From: Planctomycetota bacterium
GTDB lineage: Bacteria; Planctomycetota; Phycisphaerae; SM23-33
Reading direction: 5' to 3'
Length of the DNA stretch: 64,000 nucleotides
Assembly (NCBI GenBank): GCA_030635145.1
Contig: DAOVZK010000001.1
Span: 23,381 to 87,380 of the forward strand
In this document: piece after piece, positions 45,870 through 62,160 of the stretch
Layout: each line of letters opens with the position of its first letter
Numbering within the stretch: the first letter of the stretch is position 1
The notes under the pieces: generated by a model
What the model saw: only the letters and a program-made list of their open reading frames with translations
Database searches by the model: none
Told to the model about the DNA's origin: nothing
Program-made: the position numbers and the translations under genes

Positions 45870-45888
45870 TCGGCAAAGCCGAATTTCA

Positions 45889-47040
45889 CTACAGCGACGC
45901 CGCCGATGCGCAAGTTATCACGACGTTATCCCACACGATTTTCGGATTCACGTTCCGCCACAACAATCGCTCGAACTGCGAAAGCTGCTCGATGATTTCC
46001 CCGAGTTCCGTCGGCGAAAATTTCTCCCCCAGCCGCTGGATAACCTCAAGTTGATCGCCGTTAACGAGCGGTTTGTCCGTCCCTGCCCGCAGCATCATCG
46101 CGTCACTGTAACCCGAGGCGATAATCTCCAGAATCGTACCCGTCGTACGCCGCGTGGCGAGGTTCTTGCTCAGCGCCGCGCCGTCCTGTTTTTTGGCGTC
46201 TTTGACGGCATTCTCGGCGAGCTTGTCGCTGGTTTTGGCAAGCTCCTCACCAAGCTTCGCATCACCCCCGCGCCCCAGCAACGCGAGCTTCTGCAAAATG
46301 TCGCACTTTATATCGTACATCCCCATTTTCGACAATCGCAGCGAGCGGCCGACCGATCCGTCGGAAAATCCCGCCCAAAACTCGGCCTCGGTTTGGGCAA
46401 CCCCGCCTTCGGTGAGTTTTTGGATGACGAAATCTTTCGGCAGCGGATTAAAGCGGATCAAAGAGCAGCGGCTGCGCGTGGTGGGGAGCATTTGTTCGTC
46501 GCGTTGAGCGATCATGATGATAGTCACGCCTGGTGGTGGTTCTTCGAGAGTTTTTAAAAGGGCATTTTGGGCGGCGATGCTCAGAAGTTCTGACTCGAGC
46601 ACGACGAAAATTTTTCCACGGCCGTAGCTTGCGGCAAGCCCGACGGGGCCGAGCAGAAATTTGCGGACGACGTCAATCCCGAGGTCCTGCATCACGCGGT
46701 TGCGAACGTTGGCGTCGTCGTGAAACCGTGCGAGTTCCTTATACACCAGCTGAAAGTCGGGATGATTGCCGCTGTCCATCAGCGTACAACTGTTGCATTT
46801 TCCACACGCGCGTTTCCCCGATGCCGCGTCGCTGTCGTCAACAGCTGCGAGTAATCCGCCGTCACCCGTTTGCGGTTTTTCGCACAGCAACAGCTTCGCC
46901 AACGCGATGGCGGTCGTTCTCCGCCCAACACCCACCGGGCCGGTAAATAAAAACGCATGCGGTAAGCGATTGGCGGAAATGTTCTGCTGCAGCCGTCCGA
47001 TGGCGGACTCCTGCCCGACAATTTCGTGCAAGTCGATCAT
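45889..47040 (-). CDS. holB: DNA polymerase III delta' subunit
   Basis: AAA+ LFTGPVGVGRRT, a zinc module CGKCNSCTLMDSGNHPDFQ, and the SRC-like motif. Its ATG overlaps the tmk stop (ATGA). Confidence 0.8.
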   Translation of the reverse strand: MIDLHEIVGQESAIGRLQQNISANRLPHAFLFTGPVGVGRRTTAIALAKLLLCEKPQTGDGGLLAAVDDSDAASGKRACGKCNSCTLMDSGNHPDFQLVYKELARFHDDANVRNRVMQDLGIDVVRKFLLGPVGLAASYGRGKIFVVLESELLSIAAQNALLKTLEEPPPGVTIIMIAQRDEQMLPTTRSRCSLIRFNPLPKDFVIQKLTEGGVAQTEAEFWAGFSDGSVGRSLRLSKMGMYDIKCDILQKLALLGRGGDAKLGEELAKTSDKLAENAVKDAKKQDGAALSKNLATRRTTGTILEIIASGYSDAMMLRAGTDKPLVNGDQLEVIQRLGEKFSPTELGEIIEQLSQFERLLWRNVNPKIVWDNVVITCASAASL

Positions 47041-47687
47041 TACGCACCGGCCCCCGCAAATTTTTGCGTCACCGCTGCCCAGATATCCGCGGCGACGGTG
47101 TCCGGTGAACCGGCCGCGTCTACATTAACGACTGCTGCGGGGTAGCACTCGTCCAGTTTGCGGAACTCTTCGCGAACTTTGGCGTGATAGTCGATGCTGC
47201 GCGATTCCAATCGGTCGCGTTGCGCACCGACGCGCCGCATACCTTCGGCAACGTCGAGGTCGAGCACGATTGTCAGATCCGGGAGGAGATTTTCGACGGC
47301 GATTTCGCCCAGCTGAAGGATCAACGTTTTGTCGACGCCCAACGCACCCTGATACGCCAGCGTCGCCGAGATATACCTGTCGCACAGAATGACTTTTCCG
47401 CTTTGCATCGCGGGGCAAACGATTTCGGCAATTAATTGTGCGCGCGAGGCCATGAACAGCATCGTTTCGCACATGGGAGAAAGATCGAGGTCTTTACTGT
47501 GCAGTAGAATGTTGCGGATCTCGGCGCCCGTGGGCGTACCGCCGGGGTCAACGGCTCGCTGCACGTCAAGCCCCGCCGCCCGCATCGCTTTTTCCAGCAT
47601 ATCCAGCTGCGTGGTCTTACCGGCACCGTCAGGCCCGTCGATAACAATAAACTTACCGGATAGATTTTGCGTCAATTCGCTCATCAC
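47040..47687 (-). CDS. tmk: Thymidylate kinase
   Basis: P-loop FIVIDGPDGAGKTTQ, DR(Y/F) motif, and lid region. Confidence 0.88.
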   Translation of the reverse strand: MMSELTQNLSGKFIVIDGPDGAGKTTQLDMLEKAMRAAGLDVQRAVDPGGTPTGAEIRNILLHSKDLDLSPMCETMLFMASRAQLIAEIVCPAMQSGKVILCDRYISATLAYQGALGVDKTLILQLGEIAVENLLPDLTIVLDLDVAEGMRRVGAQRDRLESRSIDYHAKVREEFRKLDECYPAAVVNVDAAGSPDTVAADIWAAVTQKFAGAGA

Positions 47688-47969
47688 GACAGTATCGCCG
47701 CTGGACGCGAAATTATCAACTGTCTAGACAGGCTCAGGGCAAATTCCGGCAGGGGTTTCCGCCGGGGGATCATGGCGTTTAATCCGAAGCAAATCAGCAA
47801 CGTCCCGAGCAGCTCGAGGGCCTCCTCGGTAATAATCTCGATGTTCCACATCCATTGCAGGTCTTCGTGGTTCAGCCCCGGGGGTTTGCAATTGAATCCC
47901 ACCACCCGCGATGGTAAAATTGCGGGGAGTTATCGGGTTGTTTGTACAAACGGGAAGGACAAGTGTTAT

Positions 47970-49244
47970 ATGAACTTTCTTTTTAATATTTTCGGCCGAA
48001 AAATACTTATCCTGGCGATGATGTGTGTGTTTGTCTTGCAAGGAACAGTCGCAGGCGAAACCAGCGGATGGGATGACAACACCGAATCAACCAAAAGCGG
48101 TGGGTCGCAAAACGATAAAACTGAAAAGCCTGAAAAGCCCGACATCGAGTCCCTGATTGACCAGCTAGCATCGGAAAATTCCGACGAGCGATGCGAAGCT
48201 GCCACGAAGCTTGGCCAGGCTGGGGACAAAAAAGCACTAAAACCGCTGCTTATCGCGTTGAAAGACTCCGACGAAACGGTCCGCCAAGCCGCTGCCGAAG
48301 CTTTGGGGACTATCGGCGACCCGAAGGCTGTAACTCCGTTGCAAAGAATCGTCAAACGCGATGAGGATGAATTGGTCCGGACAGCTGCAGCAAAATCTCT
48401 TGGAATGCTAAAACAGAAACGAGCCTCGATTACGCTACGAAAGATTCTCAAAACCGACAAAAGCGAACTTGTTCGCAGCGAAGCCGTAAAAGCATTGGGC
48501 CAGCTCGGAGACAAAGGGGCATCCAAAACGCTGGCAAAAATTATTCTGAACGATGAAGAGGATGAAAATCTGCGATTCGCCGCCGCCGAGGCACTTGGAA
48601 AAGTCGGCGACAAACGAACCATTAAAAAAACTGTTAATGAACTGCTAAGTCAACCCATGACGCCTCCAAAGGGTGAGTGTGGCCGGAACGTAATGCATCG
48701 CCGATCCGAGCTGCTCGCCAAAATAGGGCCCAAAACGATTCCGACACTTATCAAGGCCATGAAATGGACGAAAGGCGATATCAAAGGTATTGTGTTAATT
48801 GCCTTTGGAAAAATAAAAGACAAACGCGCGATAGTTACCCTGATTAAAACTACGAAAAGCAAAAATCGAAACGAACGCTCTCACGCAGTTGCCGGTTTGG
48901 GTGAAATAGGTAACAAAAGGGTATTGCCACACGTTATGCCACTTCTGAATGACAAGATTGGCCGTGTGAGAGCCAGTGCCCTGGGGGCGTTATCCAAGCT
49001 CAAAGGCTCAAAGGCCTTGCCTATTCTTATCAAAGCACTCTCTGCTGATGAGGAGGAGCATGTGCGGAGCAATGTTGCGCGGTTGCTTGGCGGGCTCGGG
49101 GATGAACGCGCCAAACCAGCTCTGACGAAAGCCCTTAAGGATAAAAATCCATGGGTGCGAGATAGGGCGAAACGTGCGTTGCAAAAAATCGAACATGCAC
49201 GCAAAAAACGCGACGCCGCCAAAAAATCAAAACCCAAAGATTAA
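47970..49244 (+). CDS. Secreted HEAT-repeat (PBS-lyase-type) protein
   Basis: Signal peptide MNFLFNIFGRKILILAMMCVFVLQG. At least 9 repeats of the DxxVRxxAAxALGxIGDxxAxxPLxxxL type. Confidence 0.65.
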   Translation: MNFLFNIFGRKILILAMMCVFVLQGTVAGETSGWDDNTESTKSGGSQNDKTEKPEKPDIESLIDQLASENSDERCEAATKLGQAGDKKALKPLLIALKDSDETVRQAAAEALGTIGDPKAVTPLQRIVKRDEDELVRTAAAKSLGMLKQKRASITLRKILKTDKSELVRSEAVKALGQLGDKGASKTLAKIILNDEEDENLRFAAAEALGKVGDKRTIKKTVNELLSQPMTPPKGECGRNVMHRRSELLAKIGPKTIPTLIKAMKWTKGDIKGIVLIAFGKIKDKRAIVTLIKTTKSKNRNERSHAVAGLGEIGNKRVLPHVMPLLNDKIGRVRASALGALSKLKGSKALPILIKALSADEEEHVRSNVARLLGGLGDERAKPALTKALKDKNPWVRDRAKRALQKIEHARKKRDAAKKSKPKD

Positions 49245-49702: not shown

Positions 49703-49878
49703 GGTTTATTCCTTCCCGGGTAAAATCTCAATACCCCAAGCAAGGATCGTAAATTGTGGCCGTTGAATAAACAAGGCCCGTTCACCAAAAAACAACCGAA
49801 AAAAGCCTTGCCTTAAACGCCTTTGTGAGTATACAATCACATAGTAACAAATAAGGTGGTACTTTGGAGTGGTACAAC

Positions 49879-50211
49879 ATGAATGCAAAACAAAAGAGGC
49901 TTTACGATTTGAAGGCCGACATACTTCAGGGCATCGCCCAGCCGATACGCCTGCAGATCGTCGACACGCTCGCGGGTGGTGAGTTGTGCGTTTGCGATAT
50001 CGTCACTCGCGTCGCAGCTGAGCGGTCGAATGTGTCGCGGCACCTCGGAGTAATGCTGCGGGCGGGAATTCTGGAAGTTCGCCGCGAAGGGCTGAAGATG
50101 ATCTACCGGCTGGGGACACCATGCATTGTGGATTTTCTCGGATGTATTGAACGAATGGTCTGCGAGCGAATCAAAAGCGACGCGGCGATCTTAAAAGGAG
50201 CAAAAAAGTGA
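49879..50211 (+). CDS. ArsR/SmtB-family metalloregulatory repressor
   Basis: HTH and the ELCVCDI metal(loid)-binding motif. Start chosen at MNAKQKR, 8 nt after GGAG. Confidence 0.8.
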   Translation: MNAKQKRLYDLKADILQGIAQPIRLQIVDTLAGGELCVCDIVTRVAAERSNVSRHLGVMLRAGILEVRREGLKMIYRLGTPCIVDFLGCIERMVCERIKSDAAILKGAKK

Positions 50212-51593
50212 ATCTTTTCAAATCGAACAATAGCGAGATTTCATTTTTTAAACGATTGACGCCGAAATTGTCGCAAAAATTTACGCTCGGAGCCTGGGCC
50301 GGTGGAGAATGGAAAAAGCTGCTGCTGATCGTGGCGGTCTTTCTCGGTTGCTTTTACGTGCCGATCGCGTCGGCGTCTTTCCGCAACGCATTGATCGAAT
50401 CCGTAGCGCTCGTGAAATGGTACGCCCAAGAGCATGTACTGCTGTGCCTGATTCCGGCGTTTTTCATTGCGGGGGGCGTGGCTGTTTTCGTGACGCACGG
50501 ATCGGTGATGAAATATCTCGGTGCGTCGGCAAACAAGTTCGTTGCCTACAGCGTGGCGAGTGTGTCGGGAGCGATATTGGCGGTTTGCTCGTGCACGGTC
50601 TTACCGCTTTTTGCGGGAATCTACAGGATGGGCGCGGGGTTAGGCCCGGCGACGGCGTTTTTGTATTCAGGCCCGGCGATCAATGTGTTGGCGATTGTGC
50701 TGACGGCAAAGGTGTTGGGCGTGGAAATAGGAATCGCCCGGGCTGTCGGCGCGATTGTCTTCAGCGTGATAATCGGGCTGCTGATGCATTTTATTTTCCG
50801 CAAAGCCGAATCCGCCAAGGCTGCCGCCCAAATGAACATTCCCACCGAGGCCGCCCCTCGGTCGCTATGGAAAACCGTGCTGTACTTCGCGAGCATGATC
50901 GGAATATTGGTGTTCGCCAACTGGAGCGGTAGTGGCGATCCGGGTAGCGGCTGGGCGGCGGTCTATTCGGTTAAGTGGTGGATTACGACCGGCTTCGCAG
51001 CTGTGCTGGGCGTGTTTCTGGTTTTGTGGTTTCGCATGGCATGGTGGAAAATTCTCGTTGCCGCAATCCCTGCCGCCGTTGCAGCTGTCGTTTTCCCCAG
51101 CTTGCCGGTTGTGATCTTCGCCATCGGTATCGTGGGATTTTCGCTGATGACCAGCACGGACAAGGGCGAGGCCGGGGAGTGGTTTTCGTCAACGTGGGTG
51201 TTCACAAAGCAGATACTCCCCCCGCTGCTGGTGGGCGTACTGGTTGCAGGGTTTTTGCTGGGGCGCCCGGGCGGGGAAGGAATTATCCCGCAAGATTGGA
51301 TCTATCGTGCTGTTGGTGGTAACTCGGTGCAGGCGAACTTTTTCGCCTCCATCGCCGGTGCGTTTATGTACTTCGCCACGCTCACCGAGGTTCCGATTCT
51401 CAAGGGCCTGATGGACAACGGAATGGGACGCGGCCCGGCGTTGGCGTTACTGCTGGCTGGCCCGGCACTGTCGCTACCGAACATGCTGGTTATTCGCACG
51501 GTGATCGGCACGAAAAAAACGCTGGTGTACATTTCGCTCGTCGTAGTCATGGCCACCATCAGCGGAATTATCTTCGGCGCGATTGGCCTTTAG
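50208..51593 (+). CDS. ArsP_1/DUF318-family permease (COG0701)
   Basis: Polytopic membrane protein with the conserved CSCTVLPLF segment and a duplicated 4-5 TM architecture. GTG start overlaps the arsR stop (GTGA). Confidence 0.6.
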   Translation: MNLFKSNNSEISFFKRLTPKLSQKFTLGAWAGGEWKKLLLIVAVFLGCFYVPIASASFRNALIESVALVKWYAQEHVLLCLIPAFFIAGGVAVFVTHGSVMKYLGASANKFVAYSVASVSGAILAVCSCTVLPLFAGIYRMGAGLGPATAFLYSGPAINVLAIVLTAKVLGVEIGIARAVGAIVFSVIIGLLMHFIFRKAESAKAAAQMNIPTEAAPRSLWKTVLYFASMIGILVFANWSGSGDPGSGWAAVYSVKWWITTGFAAVLGVFLVLWFRMAWWKILVAAIPAAVAAVVFPSLPVVIFAIGIVGFSLMTSTDKGEAGEWFSSTWVFTKQILPPLLVGVLVAGFLLGRPGGEGIIPQDWIYRAVGGNSVQANFFASIAGAFMYFATLTEVPILKGLMDNGMGRGPALALLLAGPALSLPNMLVIRTVIGTKKTLVYISLVVVMATISGIIFGAIGL

Positions 51594-51622: not shown

Positions 51623-54600
51623 TCAACTCACATTACGGAAGTTTCGCGGATCGTACCCTTTGCGACGCAAGCGTGGTTTGGGAGGCTCGGTTACAACCGG
51701 CGGGGCTTTTTCCAGCTCGACGGGCTGAGATATCTCACCGGCCGTCATCTTCGCTTTAGCGGTCTCATATCCCGCTTTGGTCACTGTTACGAGTACCTCG
51801 TCCTTTGGCGCACCGTCCCAGCGAAAAACGCCATCTGCACCAGTGCGAACTTTCGCAATACGTGGGCTAACCTTTTCATGCTGCAGCATTATCTCAACTG
51901 CAACATCGGGCAGCGGATTACCTTCATCATCGACAACCGTCCCTTGCAGAGTATGGGGTGGTTCAAGTTTTATCGCCAGCGGAGCATTTTCCTCGTCAAG
52001 CTGCATCTGCATTGTAACAGGAGCATAACCTTTCGCCCGCACAACCAACACCACTGACGCCTTCTTCGACCGCATCGAAAAATTCCCCTCGCCGTCAGTA
52101 ACAAATCTCCGCATAGTTACGCGCTTAGCTTTGCCGGGAAAATAAACATCGACAGTCGCATCACGAACCGGCCGACCAAGCCAGTTTTTAACCTGCCCGT
52201 TAAGAATAATCAGTTTCCGGCGAACCTTCAGCGGCGTTGCGTCCTGGCCCATATCATCTAATGATCGCCGTGCACGAAACAGAACGCCCGGGATCATATA
52301 GTCCGGGTGAAAAATCTGAAGCGACACCTTTTGATTCGTCTTCGGCAGCGGGGGGCTTTCCCATTTGCCTTGCTCGTTGGTCAGAACCTCTGCGGTCGTC
52401 CGCATCCATTGACTCATATCCCGCCTCTGCGGAATATTGATTTTCACCGTCGCACCGGCCAGCGGTTTGTCGTCGGCATCATGAACCACGCCGCGATAAA
52501 TCGCCTCCGGCTGCAACGCAACGCGCACATCTTGCTTATCGTCGGATGGCAGGTTGCGAACTTCGGTCGGCGTCATGCCGTCGGCCGTCACGCGAAGCAT
52601 ATGCTTGCCGGGTTTCGTGCGATAACCTCGCACGGTCGCTTTACCATCGGCGTTGGTTTTTACTGAGCGGGCCCAATTGCTGCGCCCGGCGTCGATAGTA
52701 ACTGTAGCACCGGGGATGGGGTCACCGGAGACATCTACGACCTGCACGATGCGCGGGGCATCGAGTTCGATTTTTCTCGACGTTGCGCCCGGGGCAGCCT
52801 CGAATCGAAGATCCAGCAATTCGAACTCAGCCTTGCCTTCCGGGGCGCTTTCCACACCCACAGCAAGGCCGATGAGATCGCCGATGGGCTTCATCGGCCG
52901 AAGATCACACGAAATCGTATGTACCTCACCATCAGGAATGATATCCTTCTGCGCGAACGGCATCACGCCCCCGTAGTCTGGGCCCGAGGTGTCGTCCAGA
53001 TATAATACGTATCCACTGCTCGTTGTATGCGTCCGTTTGGCGCGATAAGTCATGACGGCGATGGGATACTGCTGCGGATCGATTGGAATGTCGAAATACT
53101 TCACCCACACCTTGCGGGCAGCCGGGTTTACGACGAATCGGACGGAGTCTTTACCCTGCGCCATCGTAACAGCGTTCGTGTTGCGGGGGCCCGACCAGTG
53201 ACTCGACCACCACCTGATCGGCCAGCCGAACACCACCGCTTCGCTCGGGGAAACTTCGTCCGCGTTTCGGCCTTTATCAAGCGTCCGAGGTTTAATTCGC
53301 ATGGGCTCGTCCACCAGCGAATAGTTCGGCGCGGCAAATTGATACACCCGCGCGGAAGGTTTGGGAGCGGGCTTAGGAGTGGGGGGCGGCGACAAAGCAT
53401 AATTGTAGGACACAGTAAGGCTGCCACCCGGTTTGATAATCTTATCGACAAATATTTCTATACGCCCGTTTTTAATGCTGCGTGTCGCAGATTTCGGAAT
53501 GATTTTCAACAGTTTCGCCCCGGGCGGTAAGCGGTGAATTTCGATGCGGCGGGTTGGCTTACCGGTGGACGGGTAATGTTTCATTCTATAACGGAATTTT
53601 CCCGGGGCCGTCTGGCTGATCAGCTTGCTTATTGTTCCGCTGCTGGAATACAAAACAGGCTGGCCGGGTGCAACAGGTTTATTTAGCGTCACTTTGTATC
53701 TGAAACTTCGGCCGACATGCTTTGACGTAAACGCAAGCGGCTTGCCGGCGGCATCGGTCATTTTTTTTACATGTACGAAATCAGAATTCTGGAACCCAAT
53801 GGTTTTAAGCGTGCGGCCGTAGGTGTTGGTATACTGGATAATAGATTTGAAATTAATCGACCCGTCAGGCTGGATGTTATTTATCATGGTCTGCGTGTAA
53901 GGCACCGGCTTGGCGGGATCGGCCGCTTTTGCATCCGCCTTTTGCAGCAGTTTATAGCGAATCTTGACTCCTTGCGGATCTGAACTTGTCCCGAGAATCT
54001 GCAGGATTCCATAGCTGTCCTCGCGGGTTCTTATGAGGTACGTACCCGGCTGATTAGGTGCTTTGTGCGGAACCAATGGGGTAATTTTATTGGGCTCGGT
54101 CTGATTAAGGCCGAAGTTACTGGTTAGTTTGGCGGGGGTAGTCTCGCTCCACTTTTGATGCGGAACTGGCATCACCACGAGATCAAAACCAAGTCCAACA
54201 ATCACGCCCTTGTCTTTGACCACCGACAAATCAAGGCCGTTAGCTCGCACCCACCGGTGAGTTTCGCGATCGTTCTCGCCAAAGTCTTTTTTGAGTTTGA
54301 ACTTTCCAGTCTCAAGATCCAAGAGTACCGCATGCCGTTTCTTTGTATACGGTAACACACGCTCGACTACCGCACCGAAAGTAGCGTCTTTCGCCGTATT
54401 GATGGACTTGCCAGGCGCTTTTCGGTCCGGCCATTGCGGATACCCTTCAACCTTCTTCGCACTTACGTATTTACCGGCGGAAGTGAAGGTGAATATCTCG
54501 TTGCCGATCATTCGCTCCTTGTCCCAAATGCTGCACTTGTATTTGTAGCGAATCGAGTAATTCCCGTCAGCCAGCTTTTTGGGCGCGCCCCATTCGATGG

Positions 54601-57600
54601 TCTTGCGATTCTTGACGTCCCGATAATTCCGCGAAAAGAACTTCTCCACCCAACCGATGAGCTGCTTTTGTAGCTTTGCATCCTCGGCCGCAGGCTTGGG
54701 CTTGGGAACAGCGGGCGGTTTTGTTTCGGCCTTGCCCACCTTGATGATAACGCTTTTGATTTCTTCCCCTGATTTAACATCGAGGCCATCCTTCATGACA
54801 CTCTTGCCGTCGTAGATAATATCCAGCAGCTCGTGGTCTTTTTGTCGTGGAAAGAAGTTCAGTTTTGTTTTTCCGGGAGCAAGACCCTGCAGAAGAAACG
54901 TGTTTTTGGTGGGGAAAAGCATCCCAGCCTTACCGTAATCCCCTGTTCCCAAAACAAAACCAGTACCGTTACGGTCTCCGGCTACATCTTTCGGCTGGTG
55001 CTTGCTGTGAAATCCGGTCTGAACGAAACTGACACCCCACAAATCCTTATCTTGACTGTTTTTTAAATAAGCGCTTCCATAACTATTGGCTATCTCCCAA
55101 TCACTGCCATCTGCGTCGACAAATTTGCCTGAAATTGTAGCTCCGGGTTTTAGTTTCACGTCCAGCTGCATTTTCGGGGTTTTGCTATCGATATCGAAAG
55201 GTCTTCGAGTTCGGATAAACCCGCGATGCCCCGCATCGACCTGAACCACGAATTCGCCTTCACCCAGACCCTGGATTTTATAGTGCCCGGTTTTATCGGT
55301 GTAGGCGGTCGAAAAATCAAAAAGCAGATCGTGGGAGTGCACTACAACGAAGGCTTCGGGTATGGGCTGTCCGGTTTCATCCGTTACGATGCCCTCGATA
55401 ACAACTCCGCCTTCTTTTTTGAGCTTGATGTCGATATTCTCAACACTTCGTACTTTATCGTCAAAGGTAATCAGCTTTGCGTGTTTTCTGGAAAATGTTC
55501 CGGGGTAATAAATTGGCGGATATCCATCGCCCCGTTTTGCAACCGTTGAGTTAAGTGCCATCGCATAAACCGCCCGGCCGTCAAGCCCATCGATGAACCA
55601 CGAACCGTCGGTGGCATCTATGGTACTTTTTTTAATGGCCTGTACTTCGTAGCCATCACTATCTTTTTTTCTTACACATGCCCATACCGTAAAGTTGCTT
55701 ATGTCGGCCGGTATCTTGCCGTTTTCATCCAGAATTTTCCCGGAAATCCGAAAGGCCGGCTTCATCTTAATGAGAACATCTTTGCGTTGCTCACCTTCTT
55801 TAAGAGAAAATCGCGGAAACAGGCCATCCTTATCATCAGGATTATAGGCTGCGCCCTGATATCCGGGCGTACGAATCGTCCTCAACGAAAACGGCCCTGT
55901 GGGAATATTTTCTAATGCAAAACTTCCATCTTCGGCTGCATAAACAAATAGCGGCTCAAGTGTGACGGTGTAGAACAAATAAACTTTCGCCCCCGGTATC
56001 GGCTCGCCAGTCTCGGCCGAGACTACCTTACCGCGAATCGAACACTTACCCTTCGGCAGCGATGTGTTGTCGGCACCCTTGGTAACGCTAGCCGCTCCGC
56101 CGGTGGTTTTTTCGCCCGCATCCACAACGACTTTCACGTTCGTCTTATGGCCGAGCTGAAGCGAGACGTTTTTGAACTCGACCCATTCGTACGGCCGAGT
56201 CTGAAATTCAAAATGATCTATCTCGCTAAGAGGCAGGCTGAACTTGTGTGTGTGTATCAAAATATCAGATCCGCCACTACCCGTTGAACTAGACTGTACG
56301 ATATCACCAGATTTTATGACCGCGACAACCCTTGTTGCGGGTTTGGTTATCGTGCTGGCGAGATTTATAATTGTCGCACCATCCTGTTGCTGTGGTTGAG
56401 ATAAAATCGCAGATTGGTTGCCCAGTTTTTCCGAGTTTGACCCGGTAGTGCTACACTTGAATAAAGTCTCCCACTTACCAGTTGCTATACCATATCGAAC
56501 AGTGGTTGTTTTGGGGATCTTTTTCCATCCGGCCCCCAGGGCTCTAAGATTATAAATTGATCTACCGTCTTTATCCCTCGGGCCTCCAACATTAGTTGTC
56601 GAGGCCCCGGAGACTCGCCATCGATCACTAATGTTCTTGTGGCCGTCGACTTTCATCACTAATTCATACTGATATTTCTTCAACGGATTCTTCATTCCAA
56701 CACAAGGGGCTTTTTTCAGCACATTTCCGTTGGGATGCCACCACTGTTTGTTTTTCGAATGCAGTTTCGACACGCCCACCAGCTCGACAACCACCCCGCT
56801 GGGGAGTCTTACCTTGAAGCTGGGTTCGGACGCTTTTGATTTTTCCGGTTCTGCTTTCTCTTGCTTTGCAGTGGGAAGTTTGCTTGATATCTTCAGATTA
56901 TCAAAACGGATATCGTATTCGTATCCGAGTTTGGGAGTCTGGAATCCTACTTGCGCCTTGGAAATTCGGCCGACTGGCTTTTCAAGATTTAACGTATCTA
57001 CAAGAACGTCGTCAACGTAATAGTCTACCTGCGTCCTATTTTCACGCAGCCGCATTCGCATATTAACAAACTTGGTCTCTTCCGTACCTACGTCGGGGAA
57101 TCTACCCCGACCATTTTCTAACCACCATTTTACCTTTATCCACATAGTATGAACTTGATACCAGCCCTTGGATTTGCTGGATTCTAGCAACCCGAAAAAT
57201 GTTTTCTTCTGAGGTTTCCACTGATAAAGGATCATCGGCGGACCGGTCGGACCCTCGGGGTAGAACCCCAGATACACCAATCCATAATCCTGTCGTTTTG
57301 GAATTTTAAAATCGACCGAAAAGTCCATTTCTCCATCGCGGTCTTTTACAGTAACTTCCGCCTTTGCGCCACCCCATTTTGTATCTGTAGTTTTGCCCCA
57401 AATCCGTAATTCGCCGTCTTGAACACCAATTTTCATTCCCTTGTCCGGGCAAGACAGGGTTAATCCATCATCAACATCAAACGAATAGCAAACTTTCGCA
57501 TCTTTCTTGTCATCCTTCGCGGCGGGGGCTTCGGTTTTTTCGCTCTCTTCCATGGCGGCTAGGGCTGCGGCGGTGTGTTCGTCGATAACTTTTTTCTCCG

Positions 57601-58801
57601 CCTGTGCCATCGGCAGCAAGACGGCGGCGGCGAGCAGCATGGCAATCAGTCCCAGCGTGCCGAGTTTCGCCGATTTCGGTATCGGCCGAGTGAGGATATG
57701 CTTGATCCGCTCGGTAAGCGCGCTTTTCGATTCGACAACACCGATCAACCGTAAGCTCAGGGCCGGCCGGGCCAACGACAACGTCGCAACGCTCAGCAGC
57801 GTTTCGGGATATTCGTTAGCCTCTGTGCCCATGGCGACGAGAACGGCTTCGTCGACGGCCTGTTCGCGGACGCGGCGGATGACGGCGTTGGCGATCCACA
57901 GCAGCGGATTGTAAAAGTAAAAAATCTGCAGCATGGCCTGGATCATATTGACCCACAAGTCTCCACGTTTTATGTGTGCCAACTCGTGAACCAGCACGGC
58001 CTCGAGATGCCGCGGGTTAAGTTTATCGGGTAGGTAATTCGGAATGAGAATTACCGGCCGAAATAACCCACAAACCGCGGGGCTTGTGGCACTGGGGGAA
58101 AGTTTCAGTCTGATATTACGCTTTATGTTAATCCCCGGCCGATTTTTACATTTCTCCAGCAGGCCCGTGAGTTTGTCACCGGCATCCTTAGCTTGCTTGA
58201 TGAGTCCGCTAACGAATATCGATCGCTGAATGATAAGCAGCAGCATTCCCATCGCAACGACGACCCAAACTGCAAACACCACACCCTGCCACACAATGCA
58301 AGGGTCTTTGTTATCGGCAGAATCGGTGGCGGATGGCGCAGCAGCGATGACCGTCTCGGGCGCCGCTGGTGTTACGGGCGCAGCCGAAACCGGAGAGGCG
58401 TTCTGCAGCGACATAGGCGGCAAATCCGTCGGCTCAAACTCCGTGGCCAAACCCTCACGGCTCGACGCAATCATTCCTGCCGGGAGCTCCCATGTTTCCG
58501 TTTGCAGCGGCGCAGCTGGCTGCTCAACTACCGCGGGCTCAATTACAGGATTGAGAAAATTACCCCCGACCCAATATCCGATTCCGGTTGGAGCAGAGAG
58601 TGTGACGGGTAATACCAGTTTCAGCAGCAGGAGCATCCAGAGGCAGTAGCGAATGATAGCTCGTACTTTTTTGCGAAGCAGGGTGTCCAGCAGCAGCAGA
58701 ACCGCGATCAATACGCACGACTGCAACAGCATCGGAAATGCAAATCGCATAAACCAAAATCCTGCAGTGTTCAATGATTCGACAATGGCGTTCATGTCCA
58801 T
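51623..58801 (-). CDS. Giant (2392 aa) BlaR1/MecR1-like M56-peptidase signal transducer with ~2000-aa extracytoplasmic repeat region
   Basis: N-terminal 4-TM region containing the M56 zinc motif VLVHELAHIKRGD. After that, many CarboxypepD_reg-like units (IRGKVVSAETGEPIPGAKVYL, IEGIVTDETGQPIPEAFVVV, VQVVDVSGDPIPGATVTI, LQGTVVDDEGNPLPDVAVEI and others). Starts 30 nt downstream of blaI. Confidence 0.8.
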   Translation of the reverse strand: MDMNAIVESLNTAGFWFMRFAFPMLLQSCVLIAVLLLLDTLLRKKVRAIIRYCLWMLLLLKLVLPVTLSAPTGIGYWVGGNFLNPVIEPAVVEQPAAPLQTETWELPAGMIASSREGLATEFEPTDLPPMSLQNASPVSAAPVTPAAPETVIAAAPSATDSADNKDPCIVWQGVVFAVWVVVAMGMLLLIIQRSIFVSGLIKQAKDAGDKLTGLLEKCKNRPGINIKRNIRLKLSPSATSPAVCGLFRPVILIPNYLPDKLNPRHLEAVLVHELAHIKRGDLWVNMIQAMLQIFYFYNPLLWIANAVIRRVREQAVDEAVLVAMGTEANEYPETLLSVATLSLARPALSLRLIGVVESKSALTERIKHILTRPIPKSAKLGTLGLIAMLLAAAVLLPMAQAEKKVIDEHTAAALAAMEESEKTEAPAAKDDKKDAKVCYSFDVDDGLTLSCPDKGMKIGVQDGELRIWGKTTDTKWGGAKAEVTVKDRDGEMDFSVDFKIPKRQDYGLVYLGFYPEGPTGPPMILYQWKPQKKTFFGLLESSKSKGWYQVHTMWIKVKWWLENGRGRFPDVGTEETKFVNMRMRLRENRTQVDYYVDDVLVDTLNLEKPVGRISKAQVGFQTPKLGYEYDIRFDNLKISSKLPTAKQEKAEPEKSKASEPSFKVRLPSGVVVELVGVSKLHSKNKQWWHPNGNVLKKAPCVGMKNPLKKYQYELVMKVDGHKNISDRWRVSGASTTNVGGPRDKDGRSIYNLRALGAGWKKIPKTTTVRYGIATGKWETLFKCSTTGSNSEKLGNQSAILSQPQQQDGATIINLASTITKPATRVVAVIKSGDIVQSSSTGSGGSDILIHTHKFSLPLSEIDHFEFQTRPYEWVEFKNVSLQLGHKTNVKVVVDAGEKTTGGAASVTKGADNTSLPKGKCSIRGKVVSAETGEPIPGAKVYLFYTVTLEPLFVYAAEDGSFALENIPTGPFSLRTIRTPGYQGAAYNPDDKDGLFPRFSLKEGEQRKDVLIKMKPAFRISGKILDENGKIPADISNFTVWACVRKKDSDGYEVQAIKKSTIDATDGSWFIDGLDGRAVYAMALNSTVAKRGDGYPPIYYPGTFSRKHAKLITFDDKVRSVENIDIKLKKEGGVVIEGIVTDETGQPIPEAFVVVHSHDLLFDFSTAYTDKTGHYKIQGLGEGEFVVQVDAGHRGFIRTRRPFDIDSKTPKMQLDVKLKPGATISGKFVDADGSDWEIANSYGSAYLKNSQDKDLWGVSFVQTGFHSKHQPKDVAGDRNGTGFVLGTGDYGKAGMLFPTKNTFLLQGLAPGKTKLNFFPRQKDHELLDIIYDGKSVMKDGLDVKSGEEIKSVIIKVGKAETKPPAVPKPKPAAEDAKLQKQLIGWVEKFFSRNYRDVKNRKTIEWGAPKKLADGNYSIRYKYKCSIWDKERMIGNEIFTFTSAGKYVSAKKVEGYPQWPDRKAPGKSINTAKDATFGAVVERVLPYTKKRHAVLLDLETGKFKLKKDFGENDRETHRWVRANGLDLSVVKDKGVIVGLGFDLVVMPVPHQKWSETTPAKLTSNFGLNQTEPNKITPLVPHKAPNQPGTYLIRTREDSYGILQILGTSSDPQGVKIRYKLLQKADAKAADPAKPVPYTQTMINNIQPDGSINFKSIIQYTNTYGRTLKTIGFQNSDFVHVKKMTDAAGKPLAFTSKHVGRSFRYKVTLNKPVAPGQPVLYSSSGTISKLISQTAPGKFRYRMKHYPSTGKPTRRIEIHRLPPGAKLLKIIPKSATRSIKNGRIEIFVDKIIKPGGSLTVSYNYALSPPPTPKPAPKPSARVYQFAAPNYSLVDEPMRIKPRTLDKGRNADEVSPSEAVVFGWPIRWWSSHWSGPRNTNAVTMAQGKDSVRFVVNPAARKVWVKYFDIPIDPQQYPIAVMTYRAKRTHTTSSGYVLYLDDTSGPDYGGVMPFAQKDIIPDGEVHTISCDLRPMKPIGDLIGLAVGVESAPEGKAEFELLDLRFEAAPGATSRKIELDAPRIVQVVDVSGDPIPGATVTIDAGRSNWARSVKTNADGKATVRGYRTKPGKHMLRVTADGMTPTEVRNLPSDDKQDVRVALQPEAIYRGVVHDADDKPLAGATVKINIPQRRDMSQWMRTTAEVLTNEQGKWESPPLPKTNQKVSLQIFHPDYMIPGVLFRARRSLDDMGQDATPLKVRRKLIILNGQVKNWLGRPVRDATVDVYFPGKAKRVTMRRFVTDGEGNFSMRSKKASVVLVVRAKGYAPVTMQMQLDEENAPLAIKLEPPHTLQGTVVDDEGNPLPDVAVEIMLQHEKVSPRIAKVRTGADGVFRWDGAPKDEVLVTVTKAGYETAKAKMTAGEISQPVELEKAPPVVTEPPKPRLRRKGYDPRNFRNVS

Positions 58802-58831
58802 GTTAAAATCTCCCCGAAATTGTCGGTAAGG

Positions 58832-59233
58832 CTATTGGCTTTTTTTCTCGGCCGAGCGCTTACGCTTTTTCTGAATGAGGGCTTCGAGTTCGCTGAGTTC
58901 GGCGGCGGTAAAATTATTCCCGTCCAGCAAAAACTGCATCATCGGCGTCATCGCACCGTTAAATGCACGCTTGACGGTACTCATAACCTCGCATTTCTGC
59001 GCCTGCCGCGGTGTAATAGACGAACGATACATGATGAGGTTACGCAGTCTTTCTGTTTTCAGCAGACTTTTTGTAACCATCCGATCCATCATGGTTTTTA
59101 CGGTGCTGTACGACCATTTCTTGCTTTTGACCAAAGCCTCCTGAACAGTCGGGGCAGCACAGGGTTCGTGCTCCCAAACCGCACGGATGATAGCCCACTC
59201 CCCTTCGGTTAATTGATAGCCTACCTTCGCCAT
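58832..59233 (-). CDS. blaI: BlaI/MecI/CopY-family transcriptional repressor
   Basis: Winged-helix N-terminus (EWAIIRAVWEHEPCAAPTVQEAL...WSYSTVKTMMDRMVTKSLL) and a C-terminal dimerisation helix. 133 aa. Confidence 0.85.
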   Translation of the reverse strand: MAKVGYQLTEGEWAIIRAVWEHEPCAAPTVQEALVKSKKWSYSTVKTMMDRMVTKSLLKTERLRNLIMYRSSITPRQAQKCEVMSTVKRAFNGAMTPMMQFLLDGNNFTAAELSELEALIQKKRKRSAEKKSQ

Positions 59234-59267
59234 AATTTTTCTCCATGTCTTTAATTGAGTAACCAGT

Positions 59268-59285
59268 TCTCTACAATTGTAGAGA
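59268..59285. promoter_or_regulatory. Candidate BlaI operator: perfect 18-bp palindrome TCTCTACAATTGTAGAGA
   Basis: Contains TACA-AT-TGTA, the same dyad architecture as Staphylococcus/Bacillus bla/mec operators (TACAnnTGTA). Lies 35 nt upstream of the blaI start. Confidence 0.55.
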
Positions 59286-59460
59286 TGGTGTTTGCAAAGG
59301 CAAGACTTTCTTTAAAATTTTTTGCAGGCTGGTCGGTACGGCCAAAGAAGTTGGCATCGGTGGGACTTGAACGGCGAGGGCAAAATTCGCGTTCTCTGCG
59401 AGGCATGAGTAGGCCGAAACTGACTGGCCAACCTTTTCCACATATTTTTTCCATCAGCCC

Positions 59461-59497
59461 TTGACACCTAGGCTGCCTATGTATACAATACATAGGC
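59461..59497. promoter_or_regulatory. Candidate padR promoter with overlapping operator: TTGACA, 16 nt spacer, TACAAT; palindrome GCCTATGTAT-aca-ATACATAGGC
   Basis: 10-bp perfect arms with an ATGT...ACAT core, as in known PadR operators. The palindrome spans the -10 element. Lies about 55-90 nt upstream of padR. Confidence 0.5.
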
Positions 59498-59550
59498 AAG
59501 CAAGGTATACTGCTGGCTTAGTAGCCGATTTTGATACAGGAGTATGAGCG

Positions 59551-59892
59551 ATGGATTTTTCGAATGATTTGATTCGCGGGAGCGTGGTTCCGATCGTATT
59601 GAGCCTGCTCAAAGACAAACCAATGTACGGTTACGAGATGGTCAAGGTCGTCAATGCCCGCACTGGGGGTAAGCTGGAATGGAAAGAGGGCACGCTGTAC
59701 CCTGCCTTGCATCGGCTGGCCGGAACGGGGCTGATTTCGGCAAAGTGGGTGGCGGCACCTAAGGGCGAAGCTCCAGGCCGAAAGCGCAAGTACTACTCGA
59801 TAACGCGAAAAGGGCTGCGCGAACTGGCGCGCCGCACGGAAGAGTGGGCACAGTTCAGCCTCGCCGTCGACACGATGCTGTCGCTGGGCTAA
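59551..59892 (+). CDS. PadR-family transcriptional regulator
   Basis: VVPIVLSLLKDKPMYGYEMVKVV...GTLYPALHRL is a canonical PadR winged helix. 113 aa. Confidence 0.85.
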   Translation: MDFSNDLIRGSVVPIVLSLLKDKPMYGYEMVKVVNARTGGKLEWKEGTLYPALHRLAGTGLISAKWVAAPKGEAPGRKRKYYSITRKGLRELARRTEEWAQFSLAVDTMLSLG

Positions 59893-59976: not shown

Positions 59977-62160
59977 TTGAACATGAAAGATTACGACAAA
60001 CTTATCGCACGTTTAACGGATCGATTATCAGTAGACCCCGAGCTGCAAATGGACGTCGCTCAGGAGTTGCGGGCGCATCTTGACGACTCGGCCGCGGAGT
60101 TTCGCGAGGCGGGGCTAACCGAAGAACAGGCCGAAACCCAAGCAGCAAAAGCTCTCGGTGACCCGGACGAACTTTCCGGACAATTATGGTCGGCCAATCG
60201 CACGCGCCTGCGAATTCGAGGACTGCTTCGCTGGACGGCTCGCATTACGCTAATCCCAGCGGCTATCGGTGTAATCGTCTGCTTGTTGCTGTCGATGGGT
60301 GTTCGTGAGAATATGTTTACGATTCCCGAATCATGGGCAGACGAATTAACCGAGGAGCAGATGTACATTCTTCGCGGTGACCCCGCGGCCGAAACACCAT
60401 TGGAGCAAGCAAAGTCGATTACCGACCGTTGGCCGAAAAATCCTGTTTACTTTGGGGATTATGCTGTGTGGGCAATCGCAAAAGAGAAACTTCGTGGCCA
60501 GCTTTCAGACGCGAAGCTGAAACGATTGCAGGAACTGCTCTCCAAAGGTGAAAAGCTCGATCCAGACAACGCCTTCTATAATTTCATGCGGGCAGCGGCC
60601 CTGATAAACTCCACCTGCGAATTGAAGGATGATGAATTGCTCACGTATTTAGTGATCAACAGCCGCGGCGAGGTACAGCAAAAACCTTGCTACACTGTAG
60701 CCATTGAAAATGAAAAAATATTTCGGCAGGGATTGGCTGAATTGCGGGCGGGCCTGAAGAAACCCCGCCTCGCCATACCCAGTATCGAAATGCTGAAAAT
60801 CCGAGAAGCCATCATCCCAAAACCTCGCAACGTAACAGATATCCTTCGGCGAACTGCGATTGAAGTTTCGGTACTTTTACCTTCACTAAATGACTACAGA
60901 AATCTCAACAAAGCGGTGCTGGGTTATGCTTTGGCAGAAGCACGAAAGGGAAATTCCGGCGAGGCTTTGCAATTAGTGCAATATCTGGAGCAGTTCGCAA
61001 ATCACACCGGGGCAAACAGCTCATGCTTGATTGAACTCCTGGTTGCGCATGCAAATTACAATCTCGTAATGGGGCATGCGGCGCAGATGTGCAAAGTGCT
61101 TGGGGAGGACGATCTGGGGCAGGAGTTTCAAGCCCGATGTAAGGAAAGCGGGGCGTTTTTCAATGAACTTCGCAAACGACCTCGTGGAGATGCAAGCGAA
61201 TTGCGAGGGGCGGGGATGTATTGGGGCCTTTTCATGCCAGGCCTTCCCGGTTACACGATGAATTTTGAACCGATGCGAACAGCGGAGCAGTTCTGGATAA
61301 ACGAGTTTGGATTGTTGGCACTTTTGATGGGGCTAACGTTACTGGCTTTGCTGATGGGCGGTGTTACGCTATTGGAATTCTTGCGCCGGAGCGACAGACC
61401 CGTGCTGATGTTTGTCGGGGGGGATCGTATGGCGAAGATTTGCTTTTATGGAATTGTGCTGCCTATCGGAATTTACGCGGCATACGTGTATTTTTTCACC
61501 ATCGGACCCGATGTCTACGGTTTGAACGTCACAGTCGGGCGCGTTATTCTGGAGTTGATCTTTGTCGGTGCAATAATCTGCGTAACGCTGGTGGGGATGA
61601 GCTATTCCGCCATTCGCCGCCGGGCCGTCGAGCTGGGCCTAACCGTTCCAGAGCCACTGACCCTTCGCCGCCGCTGGATAATGTGGCCGATGGCGGGCTT
61701 ACTAACACTCGGAGTACTGGCATACCTGACTGCTTGGTGGACGGGGCATATACAACCGAGCAACAGGCCCTGCTGGAGTCCCTATTTCAATGATCTGGTA
61801 GGCGGCATCTCAAACTCACGATTCCCATCACCGGAGGCGATTATGATAGGCGCAATCATTTTCATCTTTCTATTGATCTGGGGGGTTCGGGAGCTTGTTG
61901 GTTTATTCAAAGCTCCGTACCGCCAGTTTCGACGCAGCTTGTACCGCAACATTGTCCCGATCCTCGCAGCTGCGGTTATCGTGGTGGGAATAATCTGCGG
62001 ATTCGTGCTGAACCGGGCGGAAACGGCGGCGGCAAAGCGCGTTACCGGTAATGCGATGATGTCGTTTGCAACAGAGCTTGAGCGGTGCGACTACAGAGAA
62101 ATTCGCGACCGATTCGCAGCGCGGCAGGCAGAACAAAAGCCGATAGGCTCGGATGAGTGA
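59977..62160 (+). CDS. PadR-associated HAAS-domain (DUF1700-like) polytopic membrane protein, 727 aa
   Basis: The N-terminal ~70 aa (DYDKLIARLTDRLSVDPELQMDVAQELRAHLDDSAAEFREAGLTEEQAETQAAKALGDPDEL) match the HAAS/DUF1700 pattern found next to PadR. Then one TM, a ~330-aa soluble region, and at least 6 further TM helices. Confidence 0.6.
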   Translation: MNMKDYDKLIARLTDRLSVDPELQMDVAQELRAHLDDSAAEFREAGLTEEQAETQAAKALGDPDELSGQLWSANRTRLRIRGLLRWTARITLIPAAIGVIVCLLLSMGVRENMFTIPESWADELTEEQMYILRGDPAAETPLEQAKSITDRWPKNPVYFGDYAVWAIAKEKLRGQLSDAKLKRLQELLSKGEKLDPDNAFYNFMRAAALINSTCELKDDELLTYLVINSRGEVQQKPCYTVAIENEKIFRQGLAELRAGLKKPRLAIPSIEMLKIREAIIPKPRNVTDILRRTAIEVSVLLPSLNDYRNLNKAVLGYALAEARKGNSGEALQLVQYLEQFANHTGANSSCLIELLVAHANYNLVMGHAAQMCKVLGEDDLGQEFQARCKESGAFFNELRKRPRGDASELRGAGMYWGLFMPGLPGYTMNFEPMRTAEQFWINEFGLLALLMGLTLLALLMGGVTLLEFLRRSDRPVLMFVGGDRMAKICFYGIVLPIGIYAAYVYFFTIGPDVYGLNVTVGRVILELIFVGAIICVTLVGMSYSAIRRRAVELGLTVPEPLTLRRRWIMWPMAGLLTLGVLAYLTAWWTGHIQPSNRPCWSPYFNDLVGGISNSRFPSPEAIMIGAIIFIFLLIWGVRELVGLFKAPYRQFRRSLYRNIVPILAAAVIVVGIICGFVLNRAETAAAKRVTGNAMMSFATELERCDYREIRDRFAARQAEQKPIGSDE

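Follow-up and report, generated by a model that had tools for sequence, protein, structure and literature searches.

The blaI-M56 gene pair

The DNA analysed here, a stretch of 64,000 nucleotides (nt) called the window below, belongs to contig DAOVZK010000001.1 of a Planctomycetota bacterium of the class Phycisphaerae (assembly GCA_030635145.1). Its subject of interest is a two-gene cassette on the minus strand, in which a gene for a BlaI-type repressor precedes a gene for a giant protein with an M56 metalloprotease head. The blaI gene (58832-59233) encodes 133 amino acids (aa), and the giant open reading frame (ORF; 51623-58801) encodes 2392 aa without interruption and follows the blaI stop after a gap of 30 nt. 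This co-oriented arrangement had been described in a first-pass annotation of the same DNA, and it is borne out by the ORF coordinates and the Pfam matches.

An ORF of this length could possibly be an artefact of assembly or annotation, in which two or more genes were joined by a frameshift or in a chimeric contig, and the first-pass annotation had itself considered that it might prove to be two genes. However, the ORF is continuous, an identical 2392-aa gene was called on the ENA metagenome scaffold ERZ23498442, and aa 1710-2392 of the giant protein are matched with 100% identity by a 683-aa NCBI fragment (P0252, 'carboxypeptidase regulatory-like domain-containing protein, partial [Phycisphaerae bacterium]'). 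Because of this agreement of the scaffold gene and the fragment, a frameshift artefact is excluded and the giant ORF is not two genes. Moreover, homologues of 1,300-4,200 aa with the same layout of head plus tail are common. No point in favour of an artefact was found, and the chance that the gene is one is considered negligible.

The M56 head

The head of the giant protein (aa 1-405; 57587-58801, minus strand, as are all coding features given below) consists of two transmembrane (TM) helices, a variable outer loop (aa 70-170), a third TM helix, a gluzincin domain and a fourth TM helix. Four hydrophobic segments were found at about aa 17-40, 49-69, 172-194 and 381-401, with the HELAH motif between the third and the fourth; the charge distribution and the structure of BlaR1 would place the protease domain in the cytoplasm. 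Peptidase_M56 (PF05569) matched aa 134-369 with E=5.2e-47 and 160.9 bits (cut-off 31), a profile of the head matched Staphylococcus aureus BlaR1 (PDB 8exp) with E=3.3e-15, and the head is 45-61% identical to those of its 120 best homologues.

The residues needed for catalysis are well conserved. The motif HELAHIKRGD (aa 272-281; 57959-57988), with zinc ligands H272 and H276, the catalytic Glu and the stabilising D281, aligns with H201ExxH205 and D210 of BlaR1, and HExxHxxxxD is kept in all 120 homologues. As the motif of the third zinc ligand, E313xxxD317 (57851-57865) aligns with E242xxxD246 of BlaR1 and is present in 116 of the 120, while Y331 and R365 are aligned to Y261 and R294. The autocleavage loop of BlaR1, which is cut at S283/F284 and was named together with the catalytic and regulatory residues in the cryo-EM study of that protein (PMC9834060), has a predicted counterpart at P346-ALSLR/LIGVVES-358 (57728-57766; slashes mark bonds known or predicted to be cut). 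The motif occurs in 113 of the 120 homologues. In the alignment by hidden Markov model (HMM), L348, R351 and L352 are placed on L280 (P4), S283 (P1) and F284 (P1') of BlaR1; comparison of A347-L-S-L-R351/L352-I-G with I-L-S-H-S283/F284-N-G shows that Leu at P4 and a hydrophobic residue at P1' are retained. All the BlaR1 residues named in that study have aligned counterparts in the head, which, to about aa 405, is by alignment a complete BlaR1-type M56 zinc protease. The first-pass annotation had reported an M56 transducer with four TM helices and HELAHIKRGD; the HMM match and the conserved catalytic residues agree with it, and the head spans about 405 aa.

The giant protein should nevertheless not be named a BlaR1. 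The NCBIfam model blaR1_generic scored 122.6 bits (cut-off 400) and was matched over profile positions 103-323 of 585, its protease part; the protein is therefore a member of the M56 family and not an orthologue of BlaR1.

The fourth TM helix (aa 381-401) ends in LLPMAQA/E (57596-57661), a site of the A-x-A type that resembles those of signal peptidase I, and P-[MLI]-[ASG]-x-[ASG] is found at the same place in 109 of the 120 homologues. The sensor domain of staphylococcal BlaR1 is released by the signal peptidase SpsB, which cuts at G331/Q332, just past the last TM helix (PMC9834060). If a signal peptidase uses the site here, the tail may be shed within the signalling cycle, or it may be a released payload; both possibilities are considered below.

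The BlaI repressor and its predicted cleavage site

The product of blaI is a winged-helix repressor that matched Penicillinase_R (PF03965) over profile positions 1-114 of 115 (E=3.4e-24, 85.8 bits, cut-off 22.6) and could be aligned without gaps to MecI (PDB 1okr) over residues 5-123. Orthology to a named BlaI, MecI or CopY group was not indicated by the NCBIfam models, which scored below their cut-offs in all cases (BlaI_of_BCL 69.2 against 180, CopY_TcrY 69.2 against 121.95, and the MecI models 31-41 against 250).

Conservation among homologues and the alignment with MecI point to TPMMQF (aa 96-101; 58931-58948) as the cleavage motif, with Q100/F101 as the predicted scissile bond. Among the 81 BlaI homologues from related loci, Q100 is present in 80 and F101 in all. 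The P1' Phe was reported to be almost invariant in BlaI proteins (PMC9834060), and the motif supports an M56-dependent cleavage of BlaI, as far as can be judged from sequence.

It could be argued that the repressor is CopY-like, or otherwise responds to a ligand by itself, and that the M56 protein is a general membrane protease or anchor. The equal scores (69.2 bits) of the CopY_TcrY and BlaI models are in favour of this, as is the TACAnnTGTA motif upstream of the gene, which is also the cop box. However, 69.2 bits is far under the CopY cut-off, and Cys residues occur in BlaI at positions 25 and 81 only, with no C-terminal CxCxxxxCxC cluster, so that it is not a metal sensor of the CopY type. 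Furthermore, blaI and the M56 gene occur together in 82 of 82 loci, and the Q-F pair at the site where BlaI/MecI is cleaved is essentially invariant. A repressor that works independently of the protease is thus regarded as very unlikely.

The operator-like dyad and the putative promoter

The 18-bp perfect dyad TCTCTACAATTGTAGAGA (59268-59285), with a TACA-NN-TGTA core, ends 34 nt short of the blaI ATG. Its presence had been noted in the first-pass annotation, and it is now found to be conserved across loci. The comparison included 80 metagenome loci collected via the head alignment, the source scaffold itself (L001) and L002 (see below), of which 79 had enough upstream sequence. The sequence TACANNTGTA was found in 57 of these 79, with a position of -46 to -52 relative to the blaI ATG in 50 of the 57; the main pattern is CT[CT]TACAnnTGTA[GA]AG. 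At the same place, 14 more loci have a variant, ATCTAC-N4-GTAGAG, and their BlaI proteins are more divergent. Altogether, 71 of the 79 loci carry the main or the variant dyad, and it is this conservation of position and sequence that is decisive in making the element an operator candidate.

The dyad also overlaps a putative promoter. The consensus of the loci, TTnCTTGCAATCT[CT]TACAnnTGTAGAGTAnnCT, reads as a TTGCAA -35 box and a TAnnCT -10 box between which the dyad takes up the 17-nt spacer. In the window, a consensus scan gave a putative sigma-70-type promoter, TTGCCT-16 nt-TACAAT (59276-59303, minus strand; 9 of 12 matches), with its -10 box inside the dyad. The string CTTGCCTTTGCAA-N6-ATCTCTACAATTGTAGAG-N5-GGTTACT also occurs in L016, the closest relative, and the arrangement in both is CTTGCCTTTGCAA-N6-dyad. 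The dyad is therefore described as a conserved operator-like element over the blaI promoter, to which BlaI would presumably bind. Autoregulation through the palindrome, as had been proposed in the first-pass annotation, is well supported in silico by the position of the dyad over the promoter and by its single copy per locus.

The palindrome was also listed as terminator-like in a scan of the plus strand. A terminator was rejected, since the genes that flank the palindrome diverge and there is no plus-strand gene upstream that ends at it.

In a more divergent locus (L083, 9430-9480, on the 4.24-Mb contig ctg8812c), two tandem copies of TACTGTAGTAG are found upstream of blaI, an arrangement reminiscent of the paired dyads in the staphylococcal bla operator.

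The modular tail

The tail was dissected by BLAST and HMM comparison with the 120 homologues. At least seven kinds of module are combined in this mosaic, and it is not a run of carboxypeptidase-regulatory-like repeats of about 2,000 aa, as had been assumed in the first-pass annotation, in which at least 10 units of the type Gx(V/I)xDxxGxP(I/L)PxAxV were counted. Pfam (CarboxypepD_reg, PF13620/PF13715) gave 202.5 bits in six stretches, two in aa 900-1330 and four in aa 2000-2392; the strict motif of the annotation matched once and its loose forms four to five times. An HMM built from the six units recovered aa 922-1016, 1135-1220, 2018-2099, 2102-2198, 2200-2283 and 2285-2368 and no further unit, a check that is circular for the six units themselves. 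Two degenerate candidates seen by eye, near aa 1022 and 1225, were not recovered by it. The total is thus six solid units, or eight at most, covering about 550-750 aa, and about 1,300 aa of the tail are other domains.

Module A (aa 439-644; 56870-57487) is possibly a jelly roll resembling DUF1080/3-keto-disaccharide hydrolase, although its match to PF06439 (E=8e-4, 19.9 bits) is below the cut-off of 26.8; a copy that is 56% identical is found at a different position in the homologue P0003. Next to it, Module B (aa 650-895; 56117-56854), an all-beta domain of about 250 aa, is the hallmark of the family, occurring in one to five copies at variable positions in 110 of the 120 best homologues. Neither a Pfam match nor a sequence relative in the PDB was found for it. 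Structure models were made of Modules B and D (with alignment A4, which covers Module D alone). That of Module B is confident (mean pLDDT 89.2), all-beta, and may be read as two beta-sandwiches. Its profile retrieved 3,537 cluster representatives among 1.84 billion, with 1,040 at E<=1e-30, and 100 of the 131 new top matches have an M56 head. Module B is also carried by one ECF sigma-factor fusion (P0168) and by fragments of Ser/Thr kinases (P0184, P0199), and is a candidate for a new domain family.

The first CarboxypepD_reg block (aa 920-1330; 54812-56044), with the two solid and the two degenerate units recognised by PF13620, PF13715, the HMM and eye, is 52% identical to aa 1234-1677 of P0001. 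It is followed by Module C (aa 1343-1470; 54392-54775), a unit of about 75-100 aa that is in tandem in other M56 proteins; BLASTP found it in P0002, P0008, P0009, P0029, P0049, P0253, P0256-P0258, P0262 and P0268. Module D (aa 1474-1628; 53918-54382) is a domain with a modelled HmuY fold and is also found on four Ser/Thr kinases. Its identity to haemophore-like lipoproteins of the HmuY family (HmuY of Porphyromonas gingivalis, PDB 3h8t; Tfo of Tannerella forsythia, 6eu8) is 7-12%, and no Pfam match places its sequence in that family. Its invariant residues in alignment A4 are D31, G35, T128, G134, Q137 and Y152; since no His or Met pair is among them, they give no indication of haem binding.

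Module E (about aa 1614-1814; 53360-53917) has copies with 41-47% identity in eight proteins (P0007, P0010, P0015, P0022, P0023, P0031, P0043 and P0254). The orphan Module F (aa 1830-2010; 52772-53314) matched only the NCBI fragment P0252 of the same protein in the database. No Pfam match was found for Modules C, E and F. The tail ends with the second CarboxypepD_reg block (aa 2018-2368; 51698-52750), which consists of four tandem units (PF13620, four stretches, E=5e-43, and the HMM).

A penicillin-binding protein (PBP), transpeptidase or beta-lactamase domain was not matched in Pfam or NCBIfam, either with the whole protein or with seven sub-segments, in agreement with the absence of a PBP-like sensor reported in the first-pass annotation. 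A sensor of beta-lactams or cell-wall damage could still have a cryptic penicillin-binding site in the tail, of which about 1,300 aa are without Pfam assignment. However, besides the negative searches, the modelled Modules B and D are a beta-sandwich and an HmuY fold and not the class-D beta-lactamase fold, and the tails of paralogues are completely different from each other. Such a function for the giant protein is therefore considered extremely improbable. In the first-pass annotation the tail had been called a huge non-PBP surface module; the non-PBP part of this description is upheld, whereas a surface location is not. By the topology of BlaR1 the tail would be extracytoplasmic, but in a diderm host it may be periplasmic.

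Family and distribution

The architecture is not unusual. With E<=1e-10, the giant protein has at least 443 matches among database proteins, which share the M56 head with long, variable tails. Many of the tails contain CarboxypepD_reg, and the other domains found in them are HEAT, TPR, ankyrin, beta-helix, transglutaminase, thioredoxin/AhpC, Clp_N, LamG and secretin. The homologues with a name at NCBI are mostly labelled 'M56 family metallopeptidase', and almost all of those with a named organism come from metagenome-assembled genomes (MAGs) of Phycisphaerae, Sedimentisphaerales or other Planctomycetota. The cassette is thus an ordinary member of a large, already annotated and uncharacterised Planctomycetota clade with a conserved head and shuffled tails. 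In the literature on BlaR1, M56 or penicillinase repressors in Planctomycetes, Phycisphaerae and Sedimentisphaerales, subscription-only papers aside, nothing relevant was found.

A search of genome contigs with the single head sequence gave one locus, L002 (JAUXAG010000019.1), with 55% identity and blaI upstream. It is labelled as a MAG of an Actinomycetes bacterium; since the other relatives with a named source all belong to Planctomycetota, the label may result from a binning error.

A secretin domain (PF00263) is present in the tails of P0024, P0079, P0084, P0109 and P0120, which suggests that the family's tails can extend to the outer membrane or become inserted in it.

Gene neighbourhood and regulatory output

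The blaI gene lies directly upstream of the M56 gene on the same strand in all 82 loci. Longer contexts were compared for the window and five external loci of about 25 kb from five different samples, including the 4.24-Mb contig and Anaerobaca lacustris. In all six, the pair stands alone amid unrelated housekeeping genes, and no conserved or co-regulated third gene was found. Exactly one copy of the operator is present in each of the five external contexts (relaxed pattern) and one in the window (stricter patterns). With one operator per locus and no third gene, the only target that can be demonstrated is the operon itself.

Proposed mechanism

Based on the results of this study, the cassette is probably a self-contained, autoregulated switch that works by proteolytic de-repression, as in BlaI/BlaR1, and responds to an extracytoplasmic cue. 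A dimer of BlaI would bind the 18-bp dyad over the -10 region and keep the expression of the two-gene operon low. According to hydropathy and homology to the BlaR1 structure, the giant protein would be inserted N-out/C-out, with the zinc protease in the cytoplasm between TM3 and TM4 and the tail of about 2,000 aa outside the cytoplasmic membrane. An extracytoplasmic event other than a beta-lactam could then act on the tail; for instance, a ligand might bind, or the tail might be lost or shed at the A-x-A site after TM4. The activated protease would cut BlaI at Q100/F101 in the dimerisation helix, as the conserved residues suggest, and the repressor would leave the operator. The detectable output would be the operon itself, i.e., more repressor and more receptor, although distal operators may lie elsewhere in the genome. 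The first-pass annotation had held that the de-repression logic is kept, and judging from the aligned BlaR1 residues and the Q100-F101 motif the apparatus does look intact.

Several points weigh against this mechanism. DNA binding, cleavage of BlaI and topology are all deduced. The palindrome alone is statistically weak, because, although it is the sole perfect 18-bp palindrome in the 64-kb window, at least one such palindrome occurs in 22% of shuffles. The predicted scissile bond is placed one residue ahead of N101/F102 of BlaI/MecI in the gapless alignment, and its P1 residue is Gln and not Asn, although the P1' Phe is kept. The outer loop EL1, which transmits the signal in BlaR1, is long, of low complexity and poorly conserved in the head, so the mechanism of signal coupling may differ from that of BlaR1. 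Finally, no regulated target beyond the operon appears in the contexts examined, which is odd for a sensor.

The last point fits the possibility that the tail is a payload, i.e., a structural, binding or enzymatic protein delivered to the periplasm or envelope and released by signal peptidase I, with TM4 as an internal signal peptide. The head and BlaI would then control its amount by feedback, for example by reporting export or occupancy. The canonical A-x-A site that ends TM4 in 109 of the 120 homologues, the shedding of the staphylococcal BlaR1 sensor domain by signal peptidase (PMC9834060), and the sole operator per locus, which controls the operon itself with no third gene conserved, are all in line with this. 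So are the enzyme-like or structural domains in the tails of homologues (AhpC-TSA/redoxin, transglutaminase core, beta-helix/pectinesterase and secretin). On the other hand, Ser/Thr kinases also carry Modules B and D, and Module B is present on the ECF sigma fusion; these are dedicated signalling proteins, which argues that the tails are sensory. The strong conservation of the catalytic and autocleavage apparatus and of the scissile motif in BlaI likewise implies regulated signalling. A delivered tail is judged an improbable explanation, though it is the main alternative, and payload and sensor are not mutually exclusive.

Comparison with known systems

The switch proposed here resembles BlaI-BlaR1 and MecI-MecR1 of S. 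aureus and Bacillus licheniformis (MEROPS M56; PDB 8EXP-8EXT; PMC9834060) in most of its parts. In both, the gene of a winged-helix repressor adjoins that of a gluzincin with four TM helices; HExxH, ExxxD, the Asp at +5, the Tyr, the Arg and the autocleavage loop are aligned; the P1' Phe of the repressor is at or next to the equivalent position; a TACA/TGTA dyad lies over the promoter; and, as in BlaR1, a site of the signal-peptidase type follows the last TM helix. However, the class-D beta-lactamase-like sensor of BlaR1/MecR1 is replaced here by unrelated modules that total about 2,000 aa. The order of the genes also differs, with blaI and then M56 in what is read from the 30-nt gap as one operon and without a divergent target of the blaZ/mecA type. 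Further differences are the P1 Gln in place of Asn, the long low-complexity EL1, and the NCBIfam BlaR1/BlaI scores far under the cut-offs.

Pairs of BlaI and M56 that do not sense beta-lactams are known from 'atypical' BlaIR systems without a sensor, i.e., Rv1845c/Rv1846c of Mycobacterium tuberculosis, BlaIR of M. abscessus and PvmSR of Pseudomonas aeruginosa, the last of which regulates virulence and not beta-lactam resistance (bioRxiv 10.64898/2026.08.03.742534). The present pair is similar in that respect, but those proteins end past the protease domain, whereas the giant protein adds an enormous extracytoplasmic tail. An M56 head with an envelope domain other than a PBP is also found in the M56-TonB_C fusions of Bacteroides and Xanthomonas (e.g., TonB1 and TonB10 of B. 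thetaiotaomicron), for which a signalling role was suggested and in whose protein families CarboxypepD_reg occurs as well (PMC10350073). Their tails are short, with the TonB C-terminal domain as the single domain and no Module B, and pairing with BlaI was not reported in that study.

Large and variable extracytoplasmic domains also occur in ECF sigma/anti-sigma systems and Ser/Thr kinases, which are prominent in Planctomycetota and Bacteroidota. The family described here shares with such receptors the combination of a common head with shuffled sensor modules, the many paralogues, and Modules B and D (kinases) or Module B (one ECF sigma fusion). Unlike theirs, its cytoplasmic output would come from a zinc protease that cleaves a repressor and not from the release of a sigma factor or phosphorylation.

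BlaI/BlaR1 has been studied almost solely as a switch of antibiotic resistance, and here the same repressor-cleaving logic would be coupled to huge modular ectodomains unrelated to antibiotics and would have diversified in anaerobic Planctomycetota into hundreds to thousands of variants, in organisms reported to degrade complex polymers. It is rather doubtful, yet conceivable, that BlaI and the giant M56 proteins form a major undescribed class of transmembrane signalling in Phycisphaerae and Sedimentisphaerales. Such a class would have one protease head, a shuffled extracytoplasmic toolkit (Module B and the HmuY-fold domain among it), a near-identical operator CT(C/T)TACA-NN-TGTAGAG and a tail possibly shed by signal peptidase. 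With the operator nearly identical across cassettes, the repressors could form a pooled or cross-talking network. If the tails are indeed sensors, they would represent an unexplored signalling repertoire with a predictable read-out of one operator and one scissile bond, which could be used for de-orphaning ligands or for building biosensors.

Other features of the locus

A role of the cassette in anti-phage defence was dropped as a reading, as a scan of PADLOC-DB 2.0 gave no match for the giant protein and only a chance-level match for BlaI (E=0.004).

The region at 44154-49244 of the window is ordinary chromosomal context and does not resemble a mobile element. It contains genes for a GAF-SpoIIE (PP2C) phosphatase (44154-45869), a homologue of the delta' subunit of DNA polymerase III (45889-47040), thymidylate kinase (47040-47687) and a 525-aa HEAT-repeat protein (47667-49244). 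It is followed by an ORF at 49864-50211 (plus strand), at the position of which the ENA record of the source scaffold has a 110-aa gene of the ArsR type (HTH_5). This ORF overlaps by four bases the gene of an ArsP_1-type permease (50208-51593, plus strand; PF03773, E=1e-70). Both genes run towards the 3' end of the giant gene; only 29 nt separate the stops, with no clear terminator between them.

On the other side of the cassette, a divergent gene (59461-59892, plus strand, 113 aa) encodes a regulator of the PadR family (PF03551, E=1.7e-21) and is followed by a gene for a 727-aa protein (59977-62160, plus strand) with a weak HAAS match (26.1 bits; Pfam cut-off 27). These two genes were rejected as part of the cassette, since they are absent at all other blaI-M56 loci. 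A strong promoter match, TTGACA-17-TACAAT, is found at 59461-59489, and a 21-bp inverted repeat, CCTATGTATACAATACATAGG (59476-59496), overlaps its -10 box. The PadR-HAAS pair is probably a second, independent membrane-signalling pair that is autoregulated.

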